Position numbers and translations under genes: made by a program. Of a DNA stretch of 64,000 nucleotides, positions 36,177 to 52,093 are shown one piece after another. The notes under the pieces are model-generated. The model searched no databases. It was not told the origin of the DNA and was given only the letters and a program-made list of their open reading frames with translations. Position 1 is the first letter of the stretch. Every line of letters begins with the position of its first letter. Origin of the DNA: Candidatus Pacearchaeota archaeon (GTDB lineage Archaea > Nanobdellota > Nanobdellia > Pacearchaeales > GW2011-AR1). The DNA lies in assembly GCA_041659445.1 (NCBI GenBank), contig JBAZYG010000001.1, forward strand, positions 155,068 to 219,067, written 5' to 3'.

Positions 36177-36418
36177 TCTTTTTTAAGAATTCCTTTTATC
36201 TTTATTGGAACATATTTTTTTATTTTTAATTCAGATTCAGGAATTTCCTTAGAATAAAAAATTTGTTTTAAATTAAAAACAAGTTTATTTTCGTCTTCTG
36301 TCGCGATTTTAAATAATTCTCCTTTTATCCACATTATCTTTCCTTTGTAGTCCAATTCTCTACCATAATGTTTTATCTTAAGAAGATAACATTTTTTTTC
36401 TTCAATTTTTTTAACCAT
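36173..36418 (-). CDS. Hypothetical protein (81 aa).
   Basis: ORF in a co-directional run, 4-nt overlap. Confidence 0.35.
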   Translation of the reverse strand: MVKKIEEKKCYLLKIKHYGRELDYKGKIMWIKGELFKIATEDENKLVFNLKQIFYSKEIPESELKIKKYVPIKIKGILKKD

Positions 36419-36440
36419 ATTATTTTTGATGTTTTGTTGT

Positions 36441-36938
36441 TTAAATATTTTGGGAATGGTTTTTTAATTTTTTTGAGAGTATGTAATAAAAATCTTGATA
36501 TTGTGTTCTTATTTTCATAGTTCTTCTTAACATGTAGTCTGTTCCGAAATAAGGGTAATTATCTAAAATATCAAATATAATCCACATTGGCCAGCATTTA
36601 ACCATAATTTTGTATATATCTTCTTTAGTTTTAGCACTTTTAGATTCTTCAATTAATTCAAAATACTTTTCACACATTTTATTAAATAATTTTTCGGTTA
36701 ATTTTTCTTTTAATGCCTTGTCTAATTCTTCACATTCTTTAAGATTATTATAAGATGTAACACTACCGTTATTAAATATAAATTTGGTTTTATACATTCC
36801 AACCCCCAACCATTTTTTTAACTCATCTCCTGAACCTTGTTTCCAGATTTGAACATCTAACTTAGTAAATCCGATTTTTGTGCAATCATAACCATATTCC
36901 TCATTATTTTTTATATCTTGTTTTTCTTCATTTTCCAT
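36441..36938 (-). CDS. Hypothetical protein (165 aa).
   Basis: ORF only. Confidence 0.4.
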   Translation of the reverse strand: MENEEKQDIKNNEEYGYDCTKIGFTKLDVQIWKQGSGDELKKWLGVGMYKTKFIFNNGSVTSYNNLKECEELDKALKEKLTEKLFNKMCEKYFELIEESKSAKTKEDIYKIMVKCWPMWIIFDILDNYPYFGTDYMLRRTMKIRTQYQDFYYILSKKLKNHSQNI

Positions 36939-37000
36939 TTTACTTATATTTTTTTAAATGTATTATTTTTAATATTTTATTGTTTAAATATTTTGAGAAA

Positions 37001-37378
37001 TTACCATAGCTTTTTATGACAAGTTTTACATCTGACGTCGATTTGTTTTCCAAATAAACCCGATATTTCTGGGAATTTTTTGCATATTTTTGGTTTTATT
37101 TTTTCTAATGAACATTCTGTTATGTTGCCTTTAAATTTTAAAAATTGGCAATATTTATTTTTTCTTTTAATATATCCATGCTTTGTAATAAAATCCGAAT
37201 ATCCTGCTTTTTTTATTTTTTTAATTTCTTCTTTTGATAATTTTACTTTTAATCCACAGCACAATCCGCATCTTAAGCACTTGAATTTTTTTCTTGCAAG
37301 GACATACGGACGAATAAATAAAACATAAAGATAAAAAAGAATCATTAAGAATAAAATTATATTTATTAATACATTCAT
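37001..37378 (-). CDS. YkgJ/UPF0153-type CxxCxxCC zinc/iron-chelating domain protein with an N-terminal TM helix.
   Basis: CLRCGLCCG motif plus distal Cys residues (CQF..., CKTC). Confidence 0.55.
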   Translation of the reverse strand: MNVLINIILFLMILFYLYVLFIRPYVLARKKFKCLRCGLCCGLKVKLSKEEIKKIKKAGYSDFITKHGYIKRKNKYCQFLKFKGNITECSLEKIKPKICKKFPEISGLFGKQIDVRCKTCHKKLW

Positions 37379-37415: not shown

Positions 37416-37488
37416 TGCCCCGTCCGGGATTCGGACCCGGGTTCCAGCCTTGAAAGGGCTGTGTCCTTGGCCTCTAGACTAACGGGGC
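37416..37488 (-). tRNA. tRNA-Glu (anticodon TTC), 73 nt, no encoded CCA.
   Basis: Hand fold: acceptor GCCCCGT/ACGGGGC, D-arm GTCT-AGAGGCCAA-GGAC, anticodon arm CAGCC-CTTTCAA-GGCTG, variable GAAC, T-arm CCGGG-TCCGAAT-CCCGG, discriminator A. The T-loop reads TCCGAAT (C at position 55 instead of the near-universal U), which is unusual. Confidence 0.75.
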
Positions 37489-37653: not shown

Positions 37654-37776
37654 GAGCCTGTAGCTCAGCCTGGTTAGAGCACCGCTCTTATATGAATGTT
37701 GCTTTCAAAAAGCAATATCCTTTCTGGATTAGTCTAAGAAAGGCGGGGGTCCTCGGTTCAAATCCGAGCAGGCTCA
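37654..37776 (+). tRNA. tRNA-Ile (anticodon TAT, reads AUA) with a 48-nt intron at the canonical 37/38 position (intron 37693-37740).
   Basis: Hand fold: acceptor GAGCCTG/CAGGCTC, D-arm GCTC-AGCCTGGTTA-GAGC, anticodon stem CCGCT/GGCGG, exon loop C-T-TAT-A|A, variable GGGTC, T-arm CTCGG-TTCAAAT-CCGAG, discriminator A. BHB-like motif: 4-bp helix CTTA/TAAG flanked by 3-nt bulges TAT and AAA. Mature length 75 nt. Confidence 0.8.
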
Positions 37777-37988: not shown

Positions 37989-40900
37989 ATGGTGAAAAAG
38001 TTTAAAATCTATTTGTTAATTTGTATAATATTATTTGTGATTTTAATTGATTTTTTATCTGCAGAATCAATTTCTGATACTCTTCATTTAAACATTCAAA
38101 CAACTTATTCAAATGGGACAATTCAACCTGGAACTTTTACTTTTGTTTTTAATATAACTACAGATTCTGCATGTTCAAATGTTGTTTATTCAAATTCTTC
38201 AACCTTGACTACTGATTCAAGAGGAATTATTTCTTATTATCTTGAAAATGTAAATTTGAATTTTACAAATCAGTATTACTTATGTTATTACAGAGACGGT
38301 GTTTTGATTAATAATTCTAAAATTGCAAGAAGCCCATATTCTTTTACAACAAAAAACGCAACAGTTAGTGGATTAATTAAAGATGCTAATTTAAACATGA
38401 CTGGATATAATATTAGTGCAGATTATTTTTCAGGGACAGGAGCAAATTTAACAGAAAATTTAACTATTGGGAAAAAAATCATTTTTGGATTTGGTGAAAC
38501 AATTGATAATTTAGTCAGTGGTTGGATTAAAATAACTGGAAGTGCTAATGTTACAGGAAGTTTAATTGTCAACGGAAATATTAATTCTACTACTGGAGAT
38601 ATTTGTATAACAGGAGGAAATTGTTTGAGTACAGTTGCTTCAGGAACAGAACCTTTATGGACAGCAAACTTTACTGCTTATAACACGTCGTGGAGTTCAA
38701 CTTATAATTCAAGTTATGTTCCTTATACTGGCTCAACTGCGAATGTTAGTTTAGGAGCTTATAATTTCAGCGTCGGAGGAACTGATTTTTTTGTTAATTC
38801 AAATAAAGATTCAATTTCATCTGGAGGTTCAACAGCTTCGGGATTATATTCTGTTGCTTTAGGTGAATCAAATATTGCTTCAGGAGATGATTCAGTATCT
38901 TTAGGTTATAGTAATACTGCTTCAGATACTGGTGCTGTTGCCATTGGTTATCAATCAACTTCTTCTGCACCTTATTCAACAGCCTTAGGATATATGACAA
39001 CTGCTTCTGGACAAAAATCAACTGCTTTTGGTGCATCAACAATAGCGTCATCAGATTATGCAATTGCAATGGGTTATTCAACTATTGCATCAGGAACATA
39101 TTCTACAGCAATTGGTAGAGGAATAAATGTTTCTGGTTCAAATTCTGTTGGTATTGGATTAAATGATCAATCAGGAACTGTTCTTAGTCAAGCAAATACA
39201 ATGTCAATTATGGGTGGAACAGTTGGAATAAATACAACAGCTCCTAAAAATACTTTAAATGTCATCGGAACAGGAAATATAACTGGAAATGTAACTTCAC
39301 AAACTGATTTTTGTATTGAAGGTGGAAATTGTTTAAGTAGTGCTGTTGGAAGTTTAGGAAATATTTCAGGAGGTGGAGTAGAAAATTATATTCCTAAATG
39401 GATTGGATCAGCAAGTTTAGGGAATTCACTTGTTTATGATAATGGAACTTATGTTGGTATTGGAACAGCAACTCCAACATATCTTCTCGACGTGAATGGA
39501 AGTGGAAATATTGTGAATGATTTTAGAGTTGGAAATGATTTATTTGTTACAGGTTGGGTAAATTCAAGTGAAGATGTTTGCATTGTTGGAGGAAATTGTT
39601 TGAGTACAGTTGCTTCAGGAACAGAACCATTATGGACTGCTAACTTTACTGCTTATAATTCTTCTTGGTCATTTACTTATAATGCAACTTATGACTCTTA
39701 TAATTCAACTGGATTAATTAAAGATTGGAATTCTTCGGGTTTAATAATAAATTGGAGTACTGAATCTGGAATTGAATCTGATCCTTTATGGACTGCTAAC
39801 TTTACTGCTTATAACTCGTCGTGGTCTTCAACTTATAATTCAAGTTATAATACTGCTTATAATTATACAATAAATGGGACATTTATGAGGAAAGATGGAG
39901 ACAATGGTACTGGAGTTTATAATTTTGGAGGAGCTTGGAACGACGGAGGATTAACAATTTCTAATGGAAATTTGTATGCTCAAACTGTTTATGTTTATAA
40001 TATAACTTCTTTGCAAGTTTCAAATTTAAACATTAATGGTTCTTTAATTCCGCAAATTGGTTTTGATAATACTTTTGATGTTGGAAGTTCTTCATTAAGA
40101 TGGAGAGATTTATACGTCGGTAGAAATATTTTTTCAAATGGAAGTATTAATGTTGATTCAGGAGGAGATATTTGTATTGTTGGGGGAAATTGTTTGTCAA
40201 CATCTGGAACAGGTTCTGGAACAATTACAGGAGCTGGAACAGCGACGTATGTTCCCTTATGGAACGGAACTTCTTCGTTGAATAACTCAGTGATTTATCA
40301 AAATGGAAGTAAAATTGGAATTAATACCACTATTCCGACAGCGACATTAGATGTTAATGGAAATATTCATGCTTCAGATATTTTTGCAACAGATGTTATT
40401 TCTGGAAGCACTGTTGGTTTTGTTTCAGTTGGTTTAGGTGGTTCTATTGGTGCACATAAAACTAATTATGATGCTAAAATTACCTTTCCTGAAACAGATG
40501 ATATTTCTATTTATACAGGACTTTCTGGAGAATTATTAAGAATTTCTGGGGATGATGGTGCTGTTGGAATTGGCGAATCAATTCCAGTGTATAAATTAGA
40601 GATTAAGGGAGTTCCTATGCCCTTGGAAACACCGTCGGGTAATGGTTATTTTGGAATAACTAATATTTCAGATGGAGATATTTTAGAAATTGATTATTCT
40701 GGGAATGTTGGTATAAATACTTCAACTCCACAAAATAAATTAAATGTCGTCGGAGATGGAAATTTTACAGGAAATTTATATTCTAATGGAGCACAAGTTT
40801 TAACATCTTATACTGAAACAGAACCATTATGGACAGCAAACTTTACTGCTTATAACACGTCGTGGAGTTCAACTTACAATTCAACATATGCAAATTGGAA

Positions 40901-42527
40901 TAAAACTTATGCTGATACTTTATATTCATCAATCTCAGAACCTTTATGGACAGCAAACTTTACTGCTTATAACACGTCGTGGAGTTCAACTTATAATGCA
41001 AGTTATGATGCAAAATTAAGTGGAGTAGGAACTTCAGGTTATATTGCTGCGTGGAATGGAACTTCTTCGTTGAATAATTCAATTATTTATCAAAATGGAA
41101 CTACCTTAAATATTTCTGGAAATATCTTTGTTCAAGGCGGTTCTGGAGATGTGAATAGTAATGGTGCTGTTAATTCAGCTGATTCATTATGGGTTAAACA
41201 ATATTTAGCAGGAGCAGTTAATTTAACTGCAAAGCAATATGCAGAAGCAGATGTAAATGGAGATGGAAGAGTTGATTATTCAGATGTAGATTTAATTGAG
41301 CAAAAACTTACTGTTGAAGGATTGCCTTTAAATGAAGTTCAAAGAGAAGGAAAAAGAGCTGTTGATTCAGCATATTTTATTGATTATGACAAAGATTTTG
41401 GGATAGGAAATTATTTTTCTGATGCTGGAGATTATAATCTTACAAGTAAACTTTATGTTAATGGAACAGGAAATATCACACAAGATTTTTATGTTGGAAA
41501 TGATTTAATTGTTACAGGTTGGGTAAATTCAAGTGAAGATTTTTGTATTGTTGGAGGAAATTGTTTAAGTAATAGTGCAGATGTTTCAGAACCTTTATGG
41601 ACTGCAAACTTTACTGCTTATAACACGTCGTGGAGTTCAACTTATAATTCAAGTTATGTTCCTTATACTGGCTCAACTGCAAATGTTACTTTAGGAGATT
41701 ATAATTTTTCAGTTGGGACTTCTGATTTTTTTGTTAATGCGGATTTAAGTTCAATTTCGTCTGGGGCAAGCTCAACAGCTTCGGGATTATATTCTGTTGC
41801 TTTAGGATATGTATCAACAGCTTTAGGGCCTTCTTCAGTAGCTGTTGGGAATCATGCATTCTCTTCAGGTGATTCTTCAATAGCATTAGGGCATTATACA
41901 AATGCTTCAGGTGATTCTTCAATAGCATTAGGTGATTTAACAAATGCTTCAGGAGCTTCTTCAACAGCGACTGGTTTTGCAACAACAGCTTCGGGATTTT
42001 TATCAACAGCAATGGGTAGAGAAATTATTGCAGGAGGAGATTATAGTTTTGCTATTGCATTGAATGATCAAAATAATTTGAATGTTTCTCAAGCAAATAC
42101 AATGGCAATTATGGGGGGAAATGTTGGTATTGGAACAGCGACTCCTAATTCTATTTTAACAACTAAAGGAAATAATGTTTCATTTTTATCTGTTGGTGGA
42201 GAAAAAAGATTTTATTTTTTATCAAACGCAGATGGTAATGAAGCTGTTTTTACAATGTATGATTTTTCAGAAACTGCAAGAATTTATTTGAATACTTATT
42301 CAGATAGTTACCTTAATGTTCCAACTGGAAAATTTGGTATTAATACTTCAGCTCCTAAAAATACATTAAATGTTGTCGGAGATGGAAATTTTACTACAAA
42401 TCTTTTTGTTGGAAGTAATATAACAACAGAAAAATTAGTTTTTGAAACAAGTGCTTCTCATTACATCGACGATAATTCAACTTGTGTTAAAATTTACGGA
42501 AGTACAAGTATTTTAGAAATATGTTAA
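37989..42527 (+). CDS. Giant secreted adhesin-like surface protein (1512 aa) with Hep_Hag/YadA-head-like repeats, tail-fibre-like 'VGIGTxxPxxxLxVxG' motifs, six 'EPLWTANFTAYNTSWSSTYNSSY' repeats and an internal dockerin module.
   Basis: Signal MVKKFKIYLLICIILFVILIDFLSA. Runs of (S/T)xA(L/I)G heptads (e.g. SVALGESNIASGDDSVSLGYSNTASDTGAVAIGYQS...). Dockerin duplicate GDVNSNGAVNSAD...ADVNGDGRVDYSD at about 41140-41310. NxS/T sequons throughout. Confidence 0.7.
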   Translation: MVKKFKIYLLICIILFVILIDFLSAESISDTLHLNIQTTYSNGTIQPGTFTFVFNITTDSACSNVVYSNSSTLTTDSRGIISYYLENVNLNFTNQYYLCYYRDGVLINNSKIARSPYSFTTKNATVSGLIKDANLNMTGYNISADYFSGTGANLTENLTIGKKIIFGFGETIDNLVSGWIKITGSANVTGSLIVNGNINSTTGDICITGGNCLSTVASGTEPLWTANFTAYNTSWSSTYNSSYVPYTGSTANVSLGAYNFSVGGTDFFVNSNKDSISSGGSTASGLYSVALGESNIASGDDSVSLGYSNTASDTGAVAIGYQSTSSAPYSTALGYMTTASGQKSTAFGASTIASSDYAIAMGYSTIASGTYSTAIGRGINVSGSNSVGIGLNDQSGTVLSQANTMSIMGGTVGINTTAPKNTLNVIGTGNITGNVTSQTDFCIEGGNCLSSAVGSLGNISGGGVENYIPKWIGSASLGNSLVYDNGTYVGIGTATPTYLLDVNGSGNIVNDFRVGNDLFVTGWVNSSEDVCIVGGNCLSTVASGTEPLWTANFTAYNSSWSFTYNATYDSYNSTGLIKDWNSSGLIINWSTESGIESDPLWTANFTAYNSSWSSTYNSSYNTAYNYTINGTFMRKDGDNGTGVYNFGGAWNDGGLTISNGNLYAQTVYVYNITSLQVSNLNINGSLIPQIGFDNTFDVGSSSLRWRDLYVGRNIFSNGSINVDSGGDICIVGGNCLSTSGTGSGTITGAGTATYVPLWNGTSSLNNSVIYQNGSKIGINTTIPTATLDVNGNIHASDIFATDVISGSTVGFVSVGLGGSIGAHKTNYDAKITFPETDDISIYTGLSGELLRISGDDGAVGIGESIPVYKLEIKGVPMPLETPSGNGYFGITNISDGDILEIDYSGNVGINTSTPQNKLNVVGDGNFTGNLYSNGAQVLTSYTETEPLWTANFTAYNTSWSSTYNSTYANWNKTYADTLYSSISEPLWTANFTAYNTSWSSTYNASYDAKLSGVGTSGYIAAWNGTSSLNNSIIYQNGTTLNISGNIFVQGGSGDVNSNGAVNSADSLWVKQYLAGAVNLTAKQYAEADVNGDGRVDYSDVDLIEQKLTVEGLPLNEVQREGKRAVDSAYFIDYDKDFGIGNYFSDAGDYNLTSKLYVNGTGNITQDFYVGNDLIVTGWVNSSEDFCIVGGNCLSNSADVSEPLWTANFTAYNTSWSSTYNSSYVPYTGSTANVTLGDYNFSVGTSDFFVNADLSSISSGASSTASGLYSVALGYVSTALGPSSVAVGNHAFSSGDSSIALGHYTNASGDSSIALGDLTNASGASSTATGFATTASGFLSTAMGREIIAGGDYSFAIALNDQNNLNVSQANTMAIMGGNVGIGTATPNSILTTKGNNVSFLSVGGEKRFYFLSNADGNEAVFTMYDFSETARIYLNTYSDSYLNVPTGKFGINTSAPKNTLNVVGDGNFTTNLFVGSNITTEKLVFETSASHYIDDNSTCVKIYGSTSILEIC
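38590..41720 (+). repeat. Family of near-identical intragenic DNA repeats (>=6 copies of the ~70-nt unit gaacc(t/a)ttatggac(a/t)gc(a/t)aactttactgcttataac(a/t)cgtcgtgg...). The outermost copies extend to ~130 nt of near-identity.
   Basis: Copies start near 38649, 39624, 39781, 40821, 40938 and 41589. Blocks 38641-38780 and 41581-41720 are almost identical. A second repeat, ggaggaaattgtttgagtacagttgcttcaggaacagaacc, occurs at about 38610 and about 39590. Confidence 0.8.
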
Positions 42528-42528
42528 A

Positions 42529-45500
42529 ATGGTTAATATTAAATCAAAAAAAAAGTTTTTTTTATTTTTGTTAGTCGTAACTTTTTTTATAATTCTTTTT
42601 GAAATTAGCTCGACTTCTGCTTGGCTTACTGGATATGATTACAGAAAACAAATTAATCTTACTGGAGGAACTAATGCAGGAAATGATTATCAAATAAAAT
42701 TAACAATAGGAAATACATCAGGAGGAGATTTTAATTTAGGTGGAAATGCAACAAATTTTCCAAATGATATAAGATTTACAGATGACGACGGAGAAACACT
42801 CTTGCCCTATTGGATTGAAAATACAACAAGTCCAGCAATTTTTTGGGTTAAAGTAAATGATTCTCTTAATTCAAATCAAATTATTTATATTTATTATGGA
42901 AACTCAACTGTTTCAAGTGCAACTAACGGAACTGCGACTTTTGTAATGTTTGATGATTTTGAAAGCACTGCTTTAAATGCAGTCCCAGATTCAAGCAAAT
43001 GGGTAATTACTGGAACAGACGCAAACGATAATGTAACTATTTATTTAGACCCAGCAAATGCTTCAAATCAAGTTGCAAGGACAATTGAACAAATTGATGG
43101 AGTTGGAACAAGATTATGGGTTAAAAATCTTACTTCAAGTAATTATTCTTTTGATTTTGATTATAGAACAAGTGTAAATAGAGTTTATTATTTTTACATA
43201 TATGATGGTGCTACTATTAGGACAACTATGAATCTTGATACTACATTTCATTGGTATAATGGGGCAGCTTATCAAAATTTTGCCCCAGCAACTCCATCTC
43301 ATTCTACAAATACTTGGTACGATACCGAAATATTTGTAGCAGGACCTTTTTTAAATATGACTATTAATGGAGTAAATTATAAAGGAGGAGTTCGTTCAAA
43401 TGCAACAGCATCAGTTACCTCATTAGTGATGAATCCACATACTGCAAGTTTAACTCCTCCATTATACCAATATGTTGATGATTTTAGAGTAAGAAAGTTC
43501 TCTATGAATCCTCCAGTATTAAGTGCTGTCGGAGGACAAGAATTAATTCAAGGATTGACCTGTGGAAACTTATCTGATGGAACTTATACACTCACACAAA
43601 ATGTAACAAGTAACACTACTTGTTTTATAACAAATTCTACAAATGTTATTCTTGATTGTCAAGGATTTTATATTTATGGAAATAATTCTCCATCTTCTTA
43701 TGGAGTATATTCAAATTATCCCAATACCACAGTTAAAAATTGTAATATTTTTAATTATTCTTCAGGTATAATTTTAGACAGCAATGCAAATTCAACATTA
43801 GAAAACAATACTATAAATGTTACTTTTAGCTCGGGTTCTGATGATTATGGAATTAAATTGGGTTCTGGAGTAAATTCAACAACTAAAAATAATATAATTA
43901 ATGGTTCAGGAACAAATATTTATGCTTATATGTCTTATGCAATAAATAGTTCTTCAATTAATGACACAATATTTGTCCCTTCGGGTAGGGCTTCATTTTA
44001 TTCCGTTGGAACTACAATGAATCAAGTTTTTAATTTCACAAAACTAAATGGGAAAGGAGTAATATTTTATCAAGGAAATCCTTCATTTTACAATTTAAAA
44101 ATGAATACAACTTCAGGTTCATCTATGGATTTACCAAGAAATATTACCTTAAAAAACATAACAATAAATACAAATGGAGATGCTGATGCTGTAACAATAT
44201 CAGGTGTAGGCGTTCATTTAGATTGTGAAAACGGAGTAATTAATGGTTCAAATATAGCATCAAGAAGTGGAGTATATTCTTCAGTAGGAAATGCTAAAAT
44301 TAAAAATTGCAATATAAATAATTTCAATTATTGTATTAGGATATATGGAGGTATGAATAATTCTGTTGAAAATATTATTGCAACAACATCTTATAATGGT
44401 GGGATTCCATTAAATATTTATTTTCAATCAAATTATACTCTTGTGAATAATTTCACAGGTTCAGCTCTTGTTAATGGTTTTGGTTTATCAATTCAATATT
44501 CAAGCCATAATGTAATTAATAATTCTAACTTTAATTCACTTGGAGGTAGAGGAATTTATTTTTATGGTTTAATTGGAACAGGTTTAACTTTAAATAACAC
44601 CCTAAACAATTCTTCAGGGAATTCTTCTTCAAATTATGGAATTCAACTTTCAAGTTCTAATGATAATCTTATTTATAATTCCAATGGTTCAAGTAATACC
44701 TTAACAGGAATAGATTTAACAGATTCAAGTAATAATTATTTTAATAATATAATTGGAAATTTAACAAACAATCCTACATCAACAGGTGACGGAATTACTC
44801 TCGAATCTAATTCAATAAATAATACTTTTGAAAATTCTTTTGCAATATCAAACTCTCAAAAGGTAGATTCTTACAATTCTGCTTTTAGAATTTTTTACAG
44901 CAATAATAACACTCTTAATAATGTCACAGCAAATGTTACAGGAATTAATGCAACAGGGATTTCCTTATATTCTTCAAATTATACTTTAATTAATGGTTCT
45001 GTTGGAGATAGCAACAATTTTAATAATTCGGGTTCAGGTATGCTGTTATCAAATTCAAGTCATAATGTACTTAATAATTCTGTTGCAATAAGTGGTCTAG
45101 GAAATGGGGCTTTGGGATTAAATACAAATAGTAATTATAATAATATTGTAAATTTTATTGGAATTGCAAACTCAACTGAATATGGATGCAAATCTGTTGA
45201 GCCAAAATTAACTAACAACGTTGCCATTTTCATAACAACAAGTAGTAGTTATAATAATTTAACAAATGTTTCAGGTTATAGTCGAAGTGAAGACGGAATT
45301 GCATTTTATAATAATTCTGCAAACAATATTGTAAATAATAGTTTGGGTTTAACTTATTCAAGTGTTGGGATTTTATTAACCAATTGGGCGTCTGATAATC
45401 AAGTTATTAATAGCACAGCAATCGCAATGGGTGGTTCTTGTGGAGGTGGAAAAGCATTTGGTATTGCAGATAATTCAAGTAGAAATAATATAACTAATAT

Positions 45501-46248
45501 AACAGCAATTCAATATGGTGCTGTTTCAACAGATGGGGCTTTTTTTATACGATGCATTGGGGCAACAGCCGAATGTCATCCTAATTTTAATAATACAGTA
45601 ATTAATTCTAAAATTTTAATTTACAATTCTACAAATGGTATTTCAATAACAGACAATTCAACAGGAAATGTAATAAGAAATATTTCAATAAATTCAACAT
45701 ATACTTCTTCAACATTAAGTTTGCTAAAAGTTAATTCATCAAATAATGTTTTTTGCTTAAACAATTTTACAAGTAATCTTGGAATTTATATAAATGATTC
45801 AAATGGAAGCAATACTTATAATTGCTCTTATGGTGGAAAGGTTCAAGGAAATATTTATGAAAATGTGAATAATGGAACAATAAATGTTCTCGGTTCAGAA
45901 AATTCTTCAATAGCAAATTACTATATTGGAAAATATGGTTCTGGATATCCTTATAATCAAACAAATTCTTTAAATAAAATCTATGGTGCGGTAGACTACG
46001 TTCCTTTAACAATTTATTTAACTTCTTGCGCTTATTCTGGTTCTGGAAATTGGGTAATAAATTGTTCAGAAAATTGCACCATATTAAGTAATACAGATGT
46101 AGTGGAAAATAATATTTCTATACTTGGAGTAGGAACTTTTAGAACTTCTGCAAATATAACTGGTTTTAGTAAATTAATAATTGCAGGAATAGATTCTTCA
46201 AATATTTGTAGAGTTACTTGTTTTGATGGGGGATGTTTTAAAGATTAA
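42529..46248 (+). CDS. Giant secreted protein (1239 aa): DUF2341-like N-terminal domain, LamG/concanavalin-like region, long parallel beta-helix (PbH1-like) repeat region.
   Basis: Signal/anchor KKFFLFLLVVTFFIILFEISSTSA. WLTGYDYRKQINLTGG...NFPNDIRFTDDDGETLLPYWIEN...WVKVN...IYIYYGN matches the DUF2341 pattern. Then dozens of N-x-(I/V)-x-N-x-S / SSNNxIxNN turns. Start is 1 nt after the preceding stop. Confidence 0.7.
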   Translation: MVNIKSKKKFFLFLLVVTFFIILFEISSTSAWLTGYDYRKQINLTGGTNAGNDYQIKLTIGNTSGGDFNLGGNATNFPNDIRFTDDDGETLLPYWIENTTSPAIFWVKVNDSLNSNQIIYIYYGNSTVSSATNGTATFVMFDDFESTALNAVPDSSKWVITGTDANDNVTIYLDPANASNQVARTIEQIDGVGTRLWVKNLTSSNYSFDFDYRTSVNRVYYFYIYDGATIRTTMNLDTTFHWYNGAAYQNFAPATPSHSTNTWYDTEIFVAGPFLNMTINGVNYKGGVRSNATASVTSLVMNPHTASLTPPLYQYVDDFRVRKFSMNPPVLSAVGGQELIQGLTCGNLSDGTYTLTQNVTSNTTCFITNSTNVILDCQGFYIYGNNSPSSYGVYSNYPNTTVKNCNIFNYSSGIILDSNANSTLENNTINVTFSSGSDDYGIKLGSGVNSTTKNNIINGSGTNIYAYMSYAINSSSINDTIFVPSGRASFYSVGTTMNQVFNFTKLNGKGVIFYQGNPSFYNLKMNTTSGSSMDLPRNITLKNITINTNGDADAVTISGVGVHLDCENGVINGSNIASRSGVYSSVGNAKIKNCNINNFNYCIRIYGGMNNSVENIIATTSYNGGIPLNIYFQSNYTLVNNFTGSALVNGFGLSIQYSSHNVINNSNFNSLGGRGIYFYGLIGTGLTLNNTLNNSSGNSSSNYGIQLSSSNDNLIYNSNGSSNTLTGIDLTDSSNNYFNNIIGNLTNNPTSTGDGITLESNSINNTFENSFAISNSQKVDSYNSAFRIFYSNNNTLNNVTANVTGINATGISLYSSNYTLINGSVGDSNNFNNSGSGMLLSNSSHNVLNNSVAISGLGNGALGLNTNSNYNNIVNFIGIANSTEYGCKSVEPKLTNNVAIFITTSSSYNNLTNVSGYSRSEDGIAFYNNSANNIVNNSLGLTYSSVGILLTNWASDNQVINSTAIAMGGSCGGGKAFGIADNSSRNNITNITAIQYGAVSTDGAFFIRCIGATAECHPNFNNTVINSKILIYNSTNGISITDNSTGNVIRNISINSTYTSSTLSLLKVNSSNNVFCLNNFTSNLGIYINDSNGSNTYNCSYGGKVQGNIYENVNNGTINVLGSENSSIANYYIGKYGSGYPYNQTNSLNKIYGAVDYVPLTIYLTSCAYSGSGNWVINCSENCTILSNTDVVENNISILGVGTFRTSANITGFSKLIIAGIDSSNICRVTCFDGGCFKD

Positions 46249-47443
46249 AATGAAAATTGGAAATTTATTTTTTGTTTTTTTTATTTTTCTTTTTTCAATT
46301 TTAACTTTTGTAATTGTTTCAGCAGATGTTATTTCTGTTAATTCAGGAGGAAGTGAAAATGTAATAATAACTGCAGATAAATATCTTGAAGGTTTTTTCT
46401 TTTCTTCAAGAGACATTAATAATTTACCGAGCAATCCTTTAAATGTAAAATTGGTTTCCTTGAATGGAAGAAATGAGTCAGATACTGATTTGAATTGTTC
46501 AGGATATATTACTGACGTTGAGAATTTGACTTTGACAGTATATGTAGATTGGATTAAAGATGATAATTCACAATTTATTCAAGTTTTTGAAAATCAATTA
46601 AACAATTCTGTGTTTTCAACTTTGTTAAATAATGGAAATTTAAGTTTAGGAGATGTTTGGAAATGTTCATTGAAAGTTTCTGATGGAGAATATAATAGTA
46701 GTTGGATTGACTCAAATGAATTAACTATTATTGATATAACAAATCCAAATGTAACAATTGTTCATCCAAATTCTTCTGCTAATTACACAAGTTTAGATAT
46801 TGATTTCAATATTTCGATTTCTGAAAATGAAAATATTTCTTGGTGTGGTTACAGCGTCAATGGAACAGCGAATGTAACAATGATTAGATTAAATGATTCT
46901 TATTTTTGGCATGAACCCCCAAACTTAACAGTTGGATTAAATAATGTAACTTTTTATTGTAATGATACTTCTGGAAATTGGGGAACAAATTTCACGAATT
47001 TTACAATTTTAGACGAGGCTGCAATTGCAATTCAATTGTCTCCTGCATTAAGTTTAACTGTTAATTGGACTTTGGAAAGTTTGCCTGCTAATGATTTGAA
47101 CGCAGAAGGAAATAATTTAACTGGAGATACTTTGTATTGGGTAAATTTATCTGTAACTGCAACTACTGCAGATTTATACGTGAAAGCCGACGGAGATTTG
47201 CAAACTTTAGATTTAGATATTCTTGGTTTAGGAAATGAAACTTTTTGTGCAAATTTAACAAATTCTTCTGTTCCTGATTTAAATAGATTGATTATGAATA
47301 CAAGTTATGTTTTAATTGCTGAAGATCTTCCTAGTAGTATAATTTATTTGAAATTTTATCTTGATGCTCCGTCGGGACAAGCAGCAGGAACTTATTTGAA
47401 TAATTTAGATTTCAAAGCAGTAAATCATGGAAACACTCCTTAA
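46223..47443 (+). CDS. Secreted protein (406 aa). The C-terminal half belongs to the paralog family defined by ...F(W/Y)LD.P.GQAAGTY.N...FK.V.
   Basis: Signal ...FLFSILTFVIVSA|DV. C-terminus ...YLKFYLDAPSGQAAGTYLNNLDFKAVNHGNTP. The region from ~residue 250 aligns with the full length of the two ~200-aa paralogs. Overlaps the upstream gene by 26 nt. Confidence 0.55.
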   Translation: MMGDVLKIKMKIGNLFFVFFIFLFSILTFVIVSADVISVNSGGSENVIITADKYLEGFFFSSRDINNLPSNPLNVKLVSLNGRNESDTDLNCSGYITDVENLTLTVYVDWIKDDNSQFIQVFENQLNNSVFSTLLNNGNLSLGDVWKCSLKVSDGEYNSSWIDSNELTIIDITNPNVTIVHPNSSANYTSLDIDFNISISENENISWCGYSVNGTANVTMIRLNDSYFWHEPPNLTVGLNNVTFYCNDTSGNWGTNFTNFTILDEAAIAIQLSPALSLTVNWTLESLPANDLNAEGNNLTGDTLYWVNLSVTATTADLYVKADGDLQTLDLDILGLGNETFCANLTNSSVPDLNRLIMNTSYVLIAEDLPSSIIYLKFYLDAPSGQAAGTYLNNLDFKAVNHGNTP

Positions 47444-47518
47444 TTTTTTAAAAGAAATTAATTTCACTAGAAAAAATAAATCTTTATAAAGTATATTCTC
47501 TTATTTAAATCAATTAAT

Positions 47519-48136
47519 ATGAAAAAGAAAGGTGTGATATTTTATCGTTTGATTTTGATTTTAATTCTTTTAGCAGTTATTGTTTTATTAATTGTTCAAA
47601 ATCTTCCTAAAGTTACTGGAAATTCAATTACTGGTTTTGCAACAAGTGGAAATACTACTTCAAATGTTACAATTACTTCTTATTTATCAATTGCGTTTTG
47701 TGATAATTTATCTACAGGAATTTGGTTTGGAGAAGTTGCAAGTTTACCTGTAACAAATCAAAATGGAACACATAATGCAGATGGTGCTAGTAGTGGAAGT
47801 ACTTATTGTTTGAATGTTTCTGCTGATTCAAATACAAATGTTGATTTTTGTACAAAAGCAAGTGGAAATTTGACAACAACCGGAGCAGATGTTATTGTTT
47901 TAGCAAATGAAACTTGGAATAATGCAACAACCACAGATGCAACAACTCCATCTTATGCTACTGAAAATATTTTGACAACAGATTATGTCAAATCCGGTGG
48001 TAATGTTGCTAGCGACGGTACTGGTGTCAATTATTACAGATTCTGGTTAGATATTCCAGGTGGACAAGCAGCAGGAACATATAATAATACTGTATTTTTC
48101 AAAGGAGTAAATACTGGAAATCCATGTGGTGCATAA
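47519..48136 (+). CDS. Small secreted protein, paralog family member (205 aa).
   Basis: N-terminal hydrophobic segment. ...NTNVDFCTKASGNL...ANETWNNAT...YVKSGGNV...YYRFWLDIPGGQAAGTYNNTVFFKGVNTGNPCGA. Confidence 0.55.
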   Translation: MKKKGVIFYRLILILILLAVIVLLIVQNLPKVTGNSITGFATSGNTTSNVTITSYLSIAFCDNLSTGIWFGEVASLPVTNQNGTHNADGASSGSTYCLNVSADSNTNVDFCTKASGNLTTTGADVIVLANETWNNATTTDATTPSYATENILTTDYVKSGGNVASDGTGVNYYRFWLDIPGGQAAGTYNNTVFFKGVNTGNPCGA

Positions 48137-48773
48137 AATTAAAATGAAGAAAAAAAAGGTGACATTCGTTGAGAAAATTTTGTTTTTAAGTTTAGTCTTG
48201 ACTTTGATTTTACCTTTGGCAACTGCAGGTGTTGGTGTTAAATGGAGTAAAGAATCTTCTTTAGTTTCAGAAAATTCAAAAGTTTGTATGTCTTATGATG
48301 TTTATAATCCATGGCCACAAGATACTTATGCTACAATTAGTTTATCTCCGGAATTAATGGAAATTATTGATTATATTGGTTCAGATATTGTTTTCCTTCC
48401 TAATGAGACATCAAGTACAAATGCTATTCCTGTTGAATTTTGTTTTAAAACACCAAAAGTTTATGAAAAAGATTGTTGGGTTGGAGATGTATTTTTTTGT
48501 AAGCAAGATTGTTTAGAAGAAATGAAAACTTATGAAGGTGAAGTGTTGGTAATGGAAACTTCTCCAGATCAATCATCTCAATCTGCACAAGGTTCTGCTA
48601 CTAAAATGTCTGTTTCTGCACCTTTGAGAATTAGAGTTCAATGTGAAGCACAAAATAGAAATTTCAGTGCATTGTATGTTCTTGTTGGACTTATTGCATT
48701 AATATTATTGATAATAAATTTAGTTAAAAACAAGAAAAGCAAGCAAAATAAAAAGATTAAGAAAAAGAAATAA
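48126..48773 (+). CDS. Secreted Cys-containing protein with a C-terminal TM anchor and a poly-Lys tail (215 aa).
   Basis: Signal ...LILPLATA|GV. C-terminus ...ALYVLVGLIALILLIINLVKNKKSKQNKKIKKKK. The true start may be the internal MKKKKV (48144), which contains an A8 tract. Confidence 0.5.
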   Translation: MVHKIKMKKKKVTFVEKILFLSLVLTLILPLATAGVGVKWSKESSLVSENSKVCMSYDVYNPWPQDTYATISLSPELMEIIDYIGSDIVFLPNETSSTNAIPVEFCFKTPKVYEKDCWVGDVFFCKQDCLEEMKTYEGEVLVMETSPDQSSQSAQGSATKMSVSAPLRIRVQCEAQNRNFSALYVLVGLIALILLIINLVKNKKSKQNKKIKKKK

Positions 48774-48779
48774 AATCAT

Positions 48780-49364
48780 ATGATTTCTAAAAATCAAATT
48801 TTTTATAAGACTTTTTTGATTGTGATAATTTTTTTATGCGTTATCTTAATTATTTTTCAAAATTCAAATAATTTTACTGGAAATTATTTATTAAATACTA
48901 CATCTAATGTTTCATTATTTAAATATTATTCAATTGCGTTTAGTGATAATTTGTCTTCTGGAATTGAATTTGGAACAATAGAAAATCTTCCTGCAGTTAG
49001 TGTTAATGCAACATATAATTATTTGGGTTTGAGTAATTCAACAGAATATTTTATTAATGTTTCAAATGATTCAAATACAAATATTGATTTTTGCATAAAA
49101 GCCGACGGAGATTTAGAAAGTATTGCAAGTGATATTTTGGGATTAGGAAATGAAACTTATAATAATGCAACATTCACTAATTTATCCTCGCCCTCGGATA
49201 CAGAGGTTTTGTTGACGACTTCTTATGTTAAATCAGGAAGTAATGTTTTAATTGGTGGAGTAAATTATTATCGTTTTTGGCTTGATGTTCCATCAGGACA
49301 AGCAGCTGGAACATATAACAATACTGTTAATTTCAAAGCAGTTGAAACAGATTATTCTTGTTAA
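48780..49364 (+). CDS. Small secreted protein, paralog family member (194 aa).
   Basis: ...NTNIDFCIKADGDLESIASDILGLGNETYNNAT...YVKSGSNV...YYRFWLDVPSGQAAGTYNNTVNFKAVETDYSC. Collinear with the 47519 protein over its full length. Confidence 0.55.
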   Translation: MISKNQIFYKTFLIVIIFLCVILIIFQNSNNFTGNYLLNTTSNVSLFKYYSIAFSDNLSSGIEFGTIENLPAVSVNATYNYLGLSNSTEYFINVSNDSNTNIDFCIKADGDLESIASDILGLGNETYNNATFTNLSSPSDTEVLLTTSYVKSGSNVLIGGVNYYRFWLDVPSGQAAGTYNNTVNFKAVETDYSC

Positions 49365-49402
49365 TTAGAAAGCATTAAAAATCTGAAATTATTATTTTCT
49401 TT

Positions 49403-50863
49403 ATGATTAAAAAAGAGGTGTTTATTTTTATCTTTATTTTTTGTGTATCTCTTGTGTTTGCAATAACTGGTTATGTTACAGAAGGAAATTCTCCGTCATC
49501 AGTTACTATTGAAGGTTTGAGAATTGTTTATTCTACTTTTAATGGTTCTACAACTAATTTTAATTCCTTGAATACATCTGAATTAAATAATTTATCATTG
49601 ATGACTTTAGAAAAATCTAGTTATGGTAAAGTTATTTTTAATCAAAGTGTTAATTTGACTTTAACTGCAGGAGTGGATAAAATTGTTAATTTTGATTTGG
49701 ATTTGAACATTTCTAATAATTTAATTTATATTGATGATTCGGATTTACCTTATTTAAATAAAACAGTTACTATGTTTTTATATGGTCTTAGTTATACAAA
49801 TCCAAGGATAATTCATAATGGTGTTGTTTGTAGTGATTGTACTAAATTAAGTTATTCTGGAGGTAATTTAACTTTTTCAGCAACTACTTTTAGTGGAACT
49901 TATTATGCACAAGAAACTCCTGTTTCTCCTGTATGTGGAAATGGTGTTTGTGAATCTGGAGAAACTTCTACTAGCTGTTCTGCAGATTGTGGAAGTGGTG
50001 GTGGAGGCGGTGGAGGGGGAGGCGGAGGCGGTGGTGGAGTTACTCCTCCGATGACAACAGGCGTTAGTTTTTACATTGTTCCAGATTTTTTAGCAATTTC
50101 AATGTATAGAGGAGAATATTTTCAAAAAAATATTATTATTGTTAATAACGGAACCGAGGATTTAATAATTGGAGCATTTGTTTCAGGATTAGATAAATTT
50201 GTTTTTCCTCAAGAAGAAATATTTGAAGTTAAAGCTGGACAAAATTATACTTTAAGATTAAATATTTATGTTTCTAGTTCAACAAATATTGATGTTTACG
50301 TCGGTAAGGTTTTATTTCAATCAAAATCACTTGATAAAAGTATTAATTTTATTTTAGATGTTAAAGAAAAAGGGGCGTTATTTGACATTAGAACAAATGT
50401 TACAAAAAGATATGTTCCTCCAGGAAGAGATGTTCTTGCAAAAATTTTAATTATAAATAAAGGAGAATTAAGAAATTTTGATGTTTCTTTAGAATATAAA
50501 ATTTTAGATTTTGAAAATAATAGTTATATGCCCAAACAAGAAGATTTTGCAATAAATGAAACTTTTGCAAATACCTTTTCCTTGCATGTTCCTTCTGATC
50601 TTCCAATTGGACAATATTTATTCTACGCTAAAGTTAATTATGGAAATGTTAGTGCAACTAGTTATGATACATTTATTGTTGAAACAGTTTCATTTTGGTC
50701 TTGGATAATTTTAATAATAGTTATTATAATTTTGATTGCAATAATCTTTTTTATCTTGAGAAAAAGGAAAAAGAAAAAAGAAGGGAAACTTAAACCAAAA
50801 TCATTTTTTAAGAAACCTTCTTTAGTTAAAAGAAAATTAAGATATCCTAAAATAAATGAATAA
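49403..50863 (+). CDS. Surface protein: signal peptide, N-domain, CGNGVCESGE...C..DC knot-like motif, Gly14 linker, two Ig-like segments, C-terminal TM plus basic tail.
   Basis: MIKKEVFIFIFIFCVSLVFA signal. PVCGNGVCESGETSTSCSADCGSGGGGGGGGGGGGGGVTPP. C-terminus FWSWIILIIVIIILIAIIFFILRKRKKKKEGK. Confidence 0.55.
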   Translation: MIKKEVFIFIFIFCVSLVFAITGYVTEGNSPSSVTIEGLRIVYSTFNGSTTNFNSLNTSELNNLSLMTLEKSSYGKVIFNQSVNLTLTAGVDKIVNFDLDLNISNNLIYIDDSDLPYLNKTVTMFLYGLSYTNPRIIHNGVVCSDCTKLSYSGGNLTFSATTFSGTYYAQETPVSPVCGNGVCESGETSTSCSADCGSGGGGGGGGGGGGGGVTPPMTTGVSFYIVPDFLAISMYRGEYFQKNIIIVNNGTEDLIIGAFVSGLDKFVFPQEEIFEVKAGQNYTLRLNIYVSSSTNIDVYVGKVLFQSKSLDKSINFILDVKEKGALFDIRTNVTKRYVPPGRDVLAKILIINKGELRNFDVSLEYKILDFENNSYMPKQEDFAINETFANTFSLHVPSDLPIGQYLFYAKVNYGNVSATSYDTFIVETVSFWSWIILIIVIIILIAIIFFILRKRKKKKEGKLKPKSFFKKPSLVKRKLRYPKINE

Positions 50864-50908: not shown

Positions 50909-52093
50909 ATGTTAATAGGGCTTGTTGGAAAACCTTCTGTTGGGAAAAGTACATTTTTTAAAGCAGCAACTTTAGCAGAAGTAGAAATTGCAAGTTATCC
51001 TTTCACGACGATAAAAGCAAATCATGGTGTTGGTTATGTCAAAGTAGATTGTATTGATAAAGAATTTAATGTTAAGTGTAATCCGAGTCATGGTTTTTGT
51101 ATTAATCATAAAAGATTTGTGCCAATTGATTTAATGGATGTTGCTGGTTTAGTGCCTGGAGCTTCTGAAGGTAAAGGTTTAGGAAATCAATTTTTGGATG
51201 ATTTAAGACAAGCAGATTGTTTTATTCACATTGTTGATATTTCTGGTGAAACAGACGTCGAAGGAAAACCAACAAAAGGTCATGATCCAAAAGAAGATAT
51301 TTTATTTTTAGAAGAAGAACTTGATAAATGGTATCATGGAATTTTAATAAAAGTATGGACTTCATTTTCAAAAAAAGTAGATAATGAAAAAAGAAAATTT
51401 TCAGAAGCAATTGTTAAACAATTTTCAGGATTAAAAGTTAAAGAAGAACATGTCAAAGAAGTTTTGTTAAAATTAAATCTTCCTGAGAAATCTTCTATTT
51501 GGAGTGAAGAACAAGTTAAATCTTTTGCAAAAAAACTTAGACAAATTTCAAAGCCTATGATTATTGCTGCAAATAAAATAGAACTTAGCGATGGTAAAAG
51601 AAATTACGAGAAAGTTAAAAAAGAATTTCCTGAGTTGAAAATAATTCCTTGCTCTGCAGATTCAGAATTAGCTTTAAGGCAAGCTACGAAAGCAGGTTTG
51701 ATTGAATATATTCCTGGTGAAAATCATTTTGAAATTTTAAAAGAATTAAATGAAAAACAAAAATCTGCTTTGATTAAAATTCAAAAAGAAATTTTGGATG
51801 TTTTTGAATTTGGGACAGGAGTTCAAGAAGTTTTGAATTATGCTATTTTTGATATTTTAAAATATCTTGCAATTTTTCCTGCATCTGCAAATAAATTAGG
51901 AGATAGTAAAGGAAATATTCTTCCAGATTGTTTTTTATTGCCTCCAGATTCAACAGCGTTGGATTTTGCTTTCTATCTTCATACTGATTTTGGTAAAAAT
52001 TTTATTAAGGCAATTAATGCAAGAACAAAAATGGCTCTTGGAAAAGATTACAAATTAAAGAATAGAGATGCTTTAGAAATTATTACAAGATAA
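50909..52093 (+). CDS. Obg-family GTPase of the archaeal YchF/Ygr210-like type.
   Basis: G1 GLVGKPSVGKSTFFKAAT. G3 DVAGLV. G4 NKIE. C-terminal TGS-like domain. 394 aa. Confidence 0.8.
   Translation: MLIGLVGKPSVGKSTFFKAATLAEVEIASYPFTTIKANHGVGYVKVDCIDKEFNVKCNPSHGFCINHKRFVPIDLMDVAGLVPGASEGKGLGNQFLDDLRQADCFIHIVDISGETDVEGKPTKGHDPKEDILFLEEELDKWYHGILIKVWTSFSKKVDNEKRKFSEAIVKQFSGLKVKEEHVKEVLLKLNLPEKSSIWSEEQVKSFAKKLRQISKPMIIAANKIELSDGKRNYEKVKKEFPELKIIPCSADSELALRQATKAGLIEYIPGENHFEILKELNEKQKSALIKIQKEILDVFEFGTGVQEVLNYAIFDILKYLAIFPASANKLGDSKGNILPDCFLLPPDSTALDFAFYLHTDFGKNFIKAINARTKMALGKDYKLKNRDALEIITR

Follow-up and report, generated by a model that had tools for sequence, protein, structure and literature searches.

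Repeated DNA modules in a pacearchaeal surface fibre gene: probable homogenisation by intragenic recombination and a potential for in-frame size change

Introduction

The closest described system is BadA of Bartonella henselae, a trimeric autotransporter adhesin (TAA). Long reads on isolates showed reshuffled homologous domain arrays in the repetitive badA island; the isolates differ in BadA length and domain order, which was attributed to recombination among repeats, and neighbouring paralogous copies exchange sequence (PMC8859334). Here we analyzed a stretch of 64,000 nucleotides (nt) from Candidatus Pacearchaeota archaeon (assembly GCA_041659445.1, contig JBAZYG010000001.1, positions 155,068 to 219,067), called the window below and numbered from its first letter. 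It carries a gene for a modular secreted or surface protein with YadA-like heads, the fibre gene. An earlier note, made from the sequence alone, had described near-identical repeats in this gene as a substrate for recombinational size or phase variation. Our analysis indicates that the repeats are probably paralogous modules kept alike by recombination within the gene, and that they could support in-frame changes of its size.

The fibre gene resembles BadA in encoding a modular surface fibre with YadA-like heads and repeated modules that are alike in DNA. The two differ in their setting and architecture: BadA sits in a bacterial outer membrane with a C-terminal beta-barrel anchor and coiled-coil neck/stalk repeats, whereas the fibre protein is archaeal, has no anchor domain and contains a dockerin. 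Its repeat is also of another kind, a module of 23 amino acids (aa) that is rich in Trp, Tyr, Asn and sequons and has no confident fold. Size variation was demonstrated in BadA by long reads, whereas we infer it for the fibre gene. A TAA was considered for the fibre protein and rejected, given the archaeal host and the lack of a beta-barrel anchor; the word adhesin applies to it by analogy only. Pfam detected YadA_head and Dockerin_1 and no YadA-type anchor at the C-terminus, which ends in ...CVKIYGSTSILEIC.

Among Gram-positive surface proteins, alpha C/Rib of group B Streptococcus and the M proteins vary in repeat number and carry DNA-identical intragenic repeats in long tandem arrays. The fibre gene shares with them the intragenic DNA repeats and, potentially, in-frame copy-number change and size variants of a surface protein, but its copies are short and mostly dispersed. 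Bacterial proteins annotated as 'tail fiber domain-containing protein', and YadA_head + Peptidase_S74 proteins of Patescibacteria, Bacteroidota and others, have YadA-like heads and a G.VGIGT..P module in common with it. Unlike the fibre protein, these relatives usually end in an endosialidase-chaperone domain (PF13884) and lack the archaeal HLNIQ domain and the EPLW module. The principle is already familiar from bacterial adhesins, and the gene is not an on/off switch. A literature search on YadA or dockerin surface proteins of DPANN archaea found nothing specific.

Results

Five of the six module copies are alike in DNA

The module ([E/D]PLWTANFTAYN.SWS.TYN..Y) is encoded by a unit of 69 nt. 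It occurs in six copies, all of them in frame with the fibre gene, and within the whole window the motif is confined to these six sites. Over the unit, copies 1, 4, 5 and 6 share 93–99% DNA identity; the values for copies 2 and 3 are given in Table 1. The window is AT-rich (about 26% G+C), and at this composition codon bias alone makes copies look alike, so we compared observed and expected same-codon counts. Codon use was scored at residues identical in both copies, and the expectation was taken from the codon usage of the window. The five similar copies had the same codon in 16/19 to 20/20 cases, where about 10–11 were expected (p ≤ 0.005). For copy 2 the count was 11/17 against 9.7 expected, which is not significant and places its synonymous sites at chance level. 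Copies 1, 4, 5 and 6 also have the rare codon pair ACG-TCG in common; in the window genes, ACG makes up 1.8% of Thr codons and TCG 1.9% of Ser codons. The likeness of the five similar copies in DNA goes far beyond what codon bias and the protein require. The claim of the earlier note that six copies are conserved at the nucleotide level therefore holds for five of them and fails for copy 2.

The longest repeat joins the two outer copies. Its arms, 38647–38767 and 41587–41707, are identical at 117 of 121 positions, the four mismatches being A>T, G>A, G>C and C>A, and weaker similarity continues to about +230 nt. The near-identical outer copies 2.9 kb apart reported in the earlier note (38641–38780 and 41581–41720) were thus recovered, with slightly narrower limits. 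Exact repeat runs in the gene measure 77, 62, 50, 50, 45, 41 and 41 nt.

A pair of repeats about 120 nt long might suggest the template and variable repeats of a diversity-generating retroelement, and surface proteins of DPANN archaea are known targets of such elements. Yet both arms are coding and lie in the same open reading frame (ORF), there are six copies, and the mismatches are not adenine-specific. A scan that covered 10 ORFs around the fibre gene, a part of the window only, revealed no reverse transcriptase. We regard a retroelement as barely conceivable here.

Mosaic similarity and the two head cassettes

The outer repeats form the 5' ends of two cassettes with a common plan: a Cys motif (C..GGNCLS), the module, a YVPYTG module, a YadA-like head, and SQANTM.IMGG / G.VGI.T. 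Both cassettes contain a TAA-type YadA-like head, a left-handed beta-roll of 14-residue repeats. YadA_head was matched after each outer copy, with E-values of 3.3e-22 (head 1) and 5.5e-15 (head 2), in agreement with the earlier statement that the outer copies precede head blocks. Overall, the cassettes are about 70% identical in DNA. Over the first 40 codons, counted from the module, the two use the same codon in 33/35 cases, compared with 51/82 for the remainder (Fisher p = 2.5e-4), a contrast that points to a young or homogenised tract on top of an old cassette duplication.

Similarity among the copies forms a mosaic. Copy pairs 1/2, 2/6 and 1/6 share different stretches, and copies 1 and 6 are alike downstream. 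In the region of copy 2, positions 39588–39628 are identical over 41 nt to 38613–38653 in the region of copy 1. The copies lie 117–2940 nt apart, mostly dispersed among unrelated modules, and the flanks of most of them are unrelated to each other.

AlphaFold2 modelled the head of cassette 1, as a monomer, as a very confident beta-roll with a predicted local distance difference test (pLDDT) score of 95–99, and gave the repeated module a pLDDT below 50 and no confident structure. Foldseek matched the modelled head to the heads of BpaC, BoaA, CbpF, AtaA, EibD, UspA1 and YadA, and the sequence matches in PDB were to BpaC, BoaA and YadA. Inside head 2, a tandem array of 42 nt (14 aa) units lies at 41863–42011 on the plus strand (2.5–3.5 copies, 79–89% matches); it looks like a recent local expansion of head repeats and a second possible slippage site.

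Probable concerted evolution within the fibre family

A protein search yielded modular proteins by the hundred, with DPANN archaea, Patescibacteria and Bacteroidota among their sources. The archaeal N-terminal domain is common to 53 of 121 proteins taken from this search. The fibre protein follows the plan of this family, a 130-aa N-terminal 'HLNIQ...YYLCYYR' domain and then a variable array of short modules (Cys motif, EPLW, YVPYTG, G.VGIGT, WNGTSSLNNS). The 23-aa module was present in 15 of 119 other proteins, with 1–4 copies each, so that six copies is the highest count seen. The module variant differs from protein to protein and is common to all copies within one: NFTAYN in the fibre protein, NFSLYN in the relative P0002, and private variants in P0004, P0011, P0016 and P0046. 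Across five family genes, identity of the unit in DNA was 91.8% within genes and 64.2% between genes.

P0002 is the positional orthologue of the fibre protein. The N- and C-termini of the two agree, and a beta-helix gene lies downstream of P0002 as well. Its N-terminal domain is 68% identical in aa, but its length is 1893 aa and its internal modules come in a different order. Same-codon use against P0002 is 56–67% in the N-terminal domain, the C-terminal tail and the conserved F module (defined in Table 1), and 25–67% in the repeated module, as against 85–100% among the five similar copies within the fibre gene. Where copies stand in a conserved setting (module + F module; Cys motif + module + YVPYTG), they are nearer to their paralogues than to the P0002 orthologue, which indicates that homogenisation was later than the species split. 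Judged from these sequence comparisons, the pattern bears the mark of concerted evolution, whether through gene conversion or through unequal exchange, and is unlike that of independent conservation.

The shared codons could also reflect selection on the nucleotide sequence itself, with no recombination, if mRNA structure or pausing at ACG-TCG aided folding or N-glycosylation of the NTS/NSS sequons; the rare ACG and TCG do fall on an N-T-S sequon in four copies. However, the other family genes use different codons there and yet are homogeneous within each gene, and among the five genes compared no family-wide conservation of the same rare codons was seen. The identity also reaches into flanks whose content differs between copy pairs. 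We find selection of this type highly improbable.

In-frame spacing and expected products

All 16 exact-repeat pairs of at least 20 nt lie at distances divisible by 3, and the same holds for the spacings from copy to copy. As every copy-to-copy distance is a multiple of 3, any crossover yields a product in frame. Between 37777 and 42527 there is no A/T homopolymer of 8 nt or more and no dinucleotide-to-octanucleotide tract, and only one G6 run. A phase-variable contingency locus, acting as an on/off switch, was rejected on these two grounds, and the phase variation proposed earlier falls with it.

We propose the following mechanism. The module is found again and again across a large family of modular DPANN surface fibres, and homologous recombination, as gene conversion or unequal crossing-over, would homogenise its copies within the fibre gene, up to about 120–240 nt around the outer pair. 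Sharing one frame, the copies could, through exact tracts of 41–77 nt, support in-frame deletion or duplication of 39–980 codons. Such events would remove or duplicate YadA-like head, dockerin or spacer modules. A crossover between the outer copies would leave a protein of 532 aa with head 2 only, with the loss of head 1, the dockerin and all that lies between. Head modules should in this way be deletable, as the earlier note had held; the swapping of heads that it also proposed is doubtful, since it would need a second crossover, in the sequences 3' of the two head blocks, and these are just 77% alike and have no exact common run of at least 20 nt.

Length alleles in related genes

Eight clusters of relatives at ≥90% identity hold several full-length or nearly full-length members. 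In six of the eight, members otherwise 98.9–100% identical differ by internal in-frame indels, which lie at repeated sequence (junction repeats were seen in five). The pairs P0141/P0050, P0154/P0013, P0156/P0022 and P0150/P0075 show 99.8–100% identity apart from the indels. P0050 (1546 aa) and P0141 (1639 aa) differ by 93 aa, with the junction within 25 identical residues; P0050 lacks 279 nt, which in P0141 are flanked by an exact direct repeat of 77 nt (nt 1677 and 1956 of the gene on contig L038). P0013 (1798 aa) and P0154 (1903 aa) differ by 105 aa with a junction within 31 identical residues, and the repeat that flanks this 315-nt indel is about 150 nt long and roughly 95% identical.

Tandem units account for other differences. 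One exact unit of 30 aa separates P0022 (1624 aa) from P0156 (1654 aa), the junction lying in the tandem repeat (31 identical residues), and two units of 36 aa with a module-like SLWTLNYSTYL separate P0075 (1240 aa) from P0150 (1312 aa), both from Pacearchaeota. P0138, P0047 and P0139 (1622, 1647 and 1667 aa) differ by 25-aa tandem units. In the P0003 cluster (P0124, P0130), with differing start calls set aside, lengths of 1883 and 1896 aa reflect one 13-aa segment at aa 1838 of P0003. By sequence, the repeat tracts at the indels of these relatives are of the same size class as the tracts of the fibre gene.

The family member P0046 has three tandem modules of 105 nt that are identical in DNA, and its locus is flanked like the fibre gene, with a radical SAM gene upstream and a YGR210-type GTPase gene downstream. 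Contigs L034 and L035, from different JGI samples, match at 100% identity over 15,384 nt; they part inside a module array, in the giant surface-protein gene next to P0046. The L034 version (1598 aa) has three module copies and then 1.3 kb that are 98.7% identical to the 3' part of the adjacent P0046, a likeness between adjacent genes that recalls the exchange among BadA paralogues. The L035 version (3054 aa) has one module copy and an unrelated 3' part after '...GRVGIGTSSP'. The L035-type junction also occurs in L036 and L037, from two more samples (three samples in total), and L036 (3213 aa) leaves L035 exactly at a 'GGNVGI' module, at position 17315 of L035. The divergences among L034, L035 and L036 may reflect real recombination at shared modules, or else the short-read contigs may be chimeric.

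Alleles of the fibre gene and soundness of the assembly

A search of 5.8 billion proteins for alleles of the fibre gene returned the identical protein only, in two records. A scan of JGI metagenome contigs with a 50-nt repeat consensus gave no match. Scanned with the protein, the GTDB species genomes, whose representatives do not include the source genome, gave nothing closer than distant YadA-head relatives, bacterial and archaeal. The comparison of alleles proposed in the earlier note thus gave repeat-bounded in-frame indels in related genes and a single allele for the fibre gene itself.

The earlier note had also raised the prospect of an assembly artefact, in which reads were duplicated or chimerically joined at repeats. 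Short-read metagenome assemblies are error-prone at repeats, and two of the three contigs with P0046 end in or just past the neighbouring giant gene. Nevertheless, a second assembly of the fibre gene (an ENA k141 contig) is identical to the window over 23,378 nt, and the window extends beyond the end of that contig. The longest exact repeat, 77 nt, is below the 141-mer, substitutions and flanks are particular to each copy, and the ORF of 4.5 kb is intact. An artefact is not supported, and we hold it to be very unlikely.

Weighing of the evidence

We give a probability of about 0.7 to the reading that the repeats of the fibre gene are paralogous modules kept alike by intragenic recombination and able to support in-frame size change. 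Homogenisation within the gene, the mosaic, the in-frame spacing and the indels of relatives point to this substrate for size variation, which the earlier note had proposed, whereas no length variant of the fibre gene was seen. Recombination events may still go on in the source population.

Several points weigh against this reading. No second allele of the fibre gene was present in the collections searched, so that its length variation is unobserved, and P0046 is invariant in three samples despite its three identical tandem modules. The stretches of exact homology do not exceed 77 nt, which may keep event rates low, and the unit of copy 2 shows no homogenisation. The two assemblies that hold the fibre gene, identical over 23.4 kb, may come from the same reads, and the comparison data are all consensus short-read metagenome assemblies, able to collapse or mis-join repeats.

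The repeats could instead be a passive relic, left when a linker module needed for the structure was recently duplicated a few times in a fast-evolving gene, with no meaningful recombination now and no function in variation. The single known allele, the invariance of P0046 and the limit of 77 nt of exact homology all fit such a relic, and conservation of the module as protein across the family means that purifying selection explains part of the similarity. Simple segmental duplication is, however, insufficient, since the flanks of most copies are unrelated. The mosaic of pairwise similarity, the copies that are nearer to paralogues than to the orthologue, and the near-identical alleles of relatives that differ by repeat-bounded indels also speak against it. 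We consider a relic unlikely, though by no means negligible.

The protein, its host and the neighbouring genes

The features of the fibre gene are collected in Table 1.

Table 1. Position of the fibre gene and its parts in the window
Feature	Position	Strand	Remarks
Fibre gene	37989–42527	+	ORF of 1512 aa; modular secreted or surface protein; NCBI MFA5953200.1
Conserved N-terminal family domain (LHLNIQTT...YYLCYYRDG...ARSPYSF)	37989–38393	+	
Head cassette 1	38586–39296	+	Cys motif, module, YVPYTG, YadA-like beta-roll head (about 38766–39212), SQANTMSIMGG / GINT
Outer long repeat, left arm (module + YVPYTGSTANV.LG.YNF)	38647–38767	+	77-nt exact core 38664–38740
Module copy 1 (EPLWTANFTAYNTSWSSTYNSSY)	38649–38717	+	
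Segment upstream of copy 2	39492–39606	+	86% to 41457–41571 upstream of copy 6
Module copy 2, diverged	39624–39692	+	About 80% DNA identity to other copies
Module copy 3	39780–39848	+	86–93% to others except copy 2; then conserved 'FMRKDGDNGTG...RWRD' (F) module
Module copy 4	40821–40889	+	
Module copy 5	40938–41006	+	Starts 117 nt after copy 4; 62-nt exact match with copy 1
Dockerin type I domain	41145–41309	+	aa 1053–1107; between module copies 5 and 6, in archaeal YadA-head protein
Head cassette 2	41526–42194	+	Old duplicate of cassette 1; only the 5' 120–240 nt young or homogenised
Outer long repeat, right arm	41587–41707	+	2940 nt (980 codons) downstream of left arm
Module copy 6	41589–41657	+	

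MFA5953200.1 is the identical protein and is named 'dockerin type I domain-containing protein [Candidatus Pacearchaeota archaeon]'. The database look-up found a 1496-aa start variant on record, and an exact look-up of the 1512-aa form found no record. The protein has a hydrophobic signal/anchor at its N-terminus and abundant N-x-S/T sequons along the chain. Pfam gave YadA_head repeats in seven stretches (E 3.1e-31) and one type I dockerin (Dockerin_1, E 6.5e-13), with dockerin matches in PDB too. PHROGs was uninformative, with matches to two families of unknown function.

Directly upstream of the fibre gene is a tRNA-Glu(UUC) gene (37416–37488, minus strand), and a 123-nt tRNA gene detected by Rfam alone (37654–37776, plus strand) lies just upstream. 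The latter is presumably intron-containing, which marks the window as archaeal; this tRNA and the Pacearchaeota annotation together identify the window as archaeal DNA, as far as sequence can tell. Farther upstream, a direct repeat of 62 nt (84%; 36395–36456 and 36938–36999) coincides with the 3' ends of small minus-strand ORFs (36441–36938 and 37001–37378) and is possibly a shared terminator or intergenic element.

The next gene (42529–46248, plus strand) begins 2 nt past the fibre-gene stop; its product is a secreted protein of 1239 aa with DUF2341 and right-handed beta-helix repeats. A beta-helix gene is also directly downstream at the P0002 and P0004 loci, and the P0002 locus has a laminin-G gene as well. 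From this arrangement, the fibre gene and the beta-helix gene appear to be a conserved pair. Five consecutive ORFs follow at 46223–50863 (406, 205, 215, 194 and 486 aa), with no Pfam match above curated cut-offs; they sit between the surface-protein pair and a YGR210-type GTPase gene (50909–52093).

Discussion

DPANN archaea are very small and often symbiotic, are thought to be attached to other cells, and have fast-evolving surface proteins. In Nanoarchaeota, non-synonymous single nucleotide polymorphisms were found to be enriched in predicted surface proteins (PMC6142677). Beside such polymorphisms, the fibre gene and its relatives point to another possible source of diversity, in which recombination between modules would alter fibre length and head or dockerin content. 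Variants in size or composition may matter for attachment to a host or substrate. That the repeats are a selected, built-in mechanism for surface variation, as the earlier note suggested, is a conjecture.

A wider and more tentative idea, possible but not one that we favour, is that the short conserved modules (EPLW, YVPYTG, G.VGIGT..P) are recombination junctions throughout the family, at which heads, dockerins and spacers are deleted, duplicated and exchanged, both within genes and between adjacent paralogues. If this were true, near-clonal episymbiotic archaea would gain structural diversity of their attachment apparatus at the level of strains, through a shuffling of variable cassettes between conserved linkers that would be an archaeal analogue of antigenic variation in pathogens. 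Should reads confirm module-level recombination in the fibre gene and its relatives, their loci would serve as markers of host adaptation at strain level, with the warning that such genes are easily mis-assembled or mis-binned.

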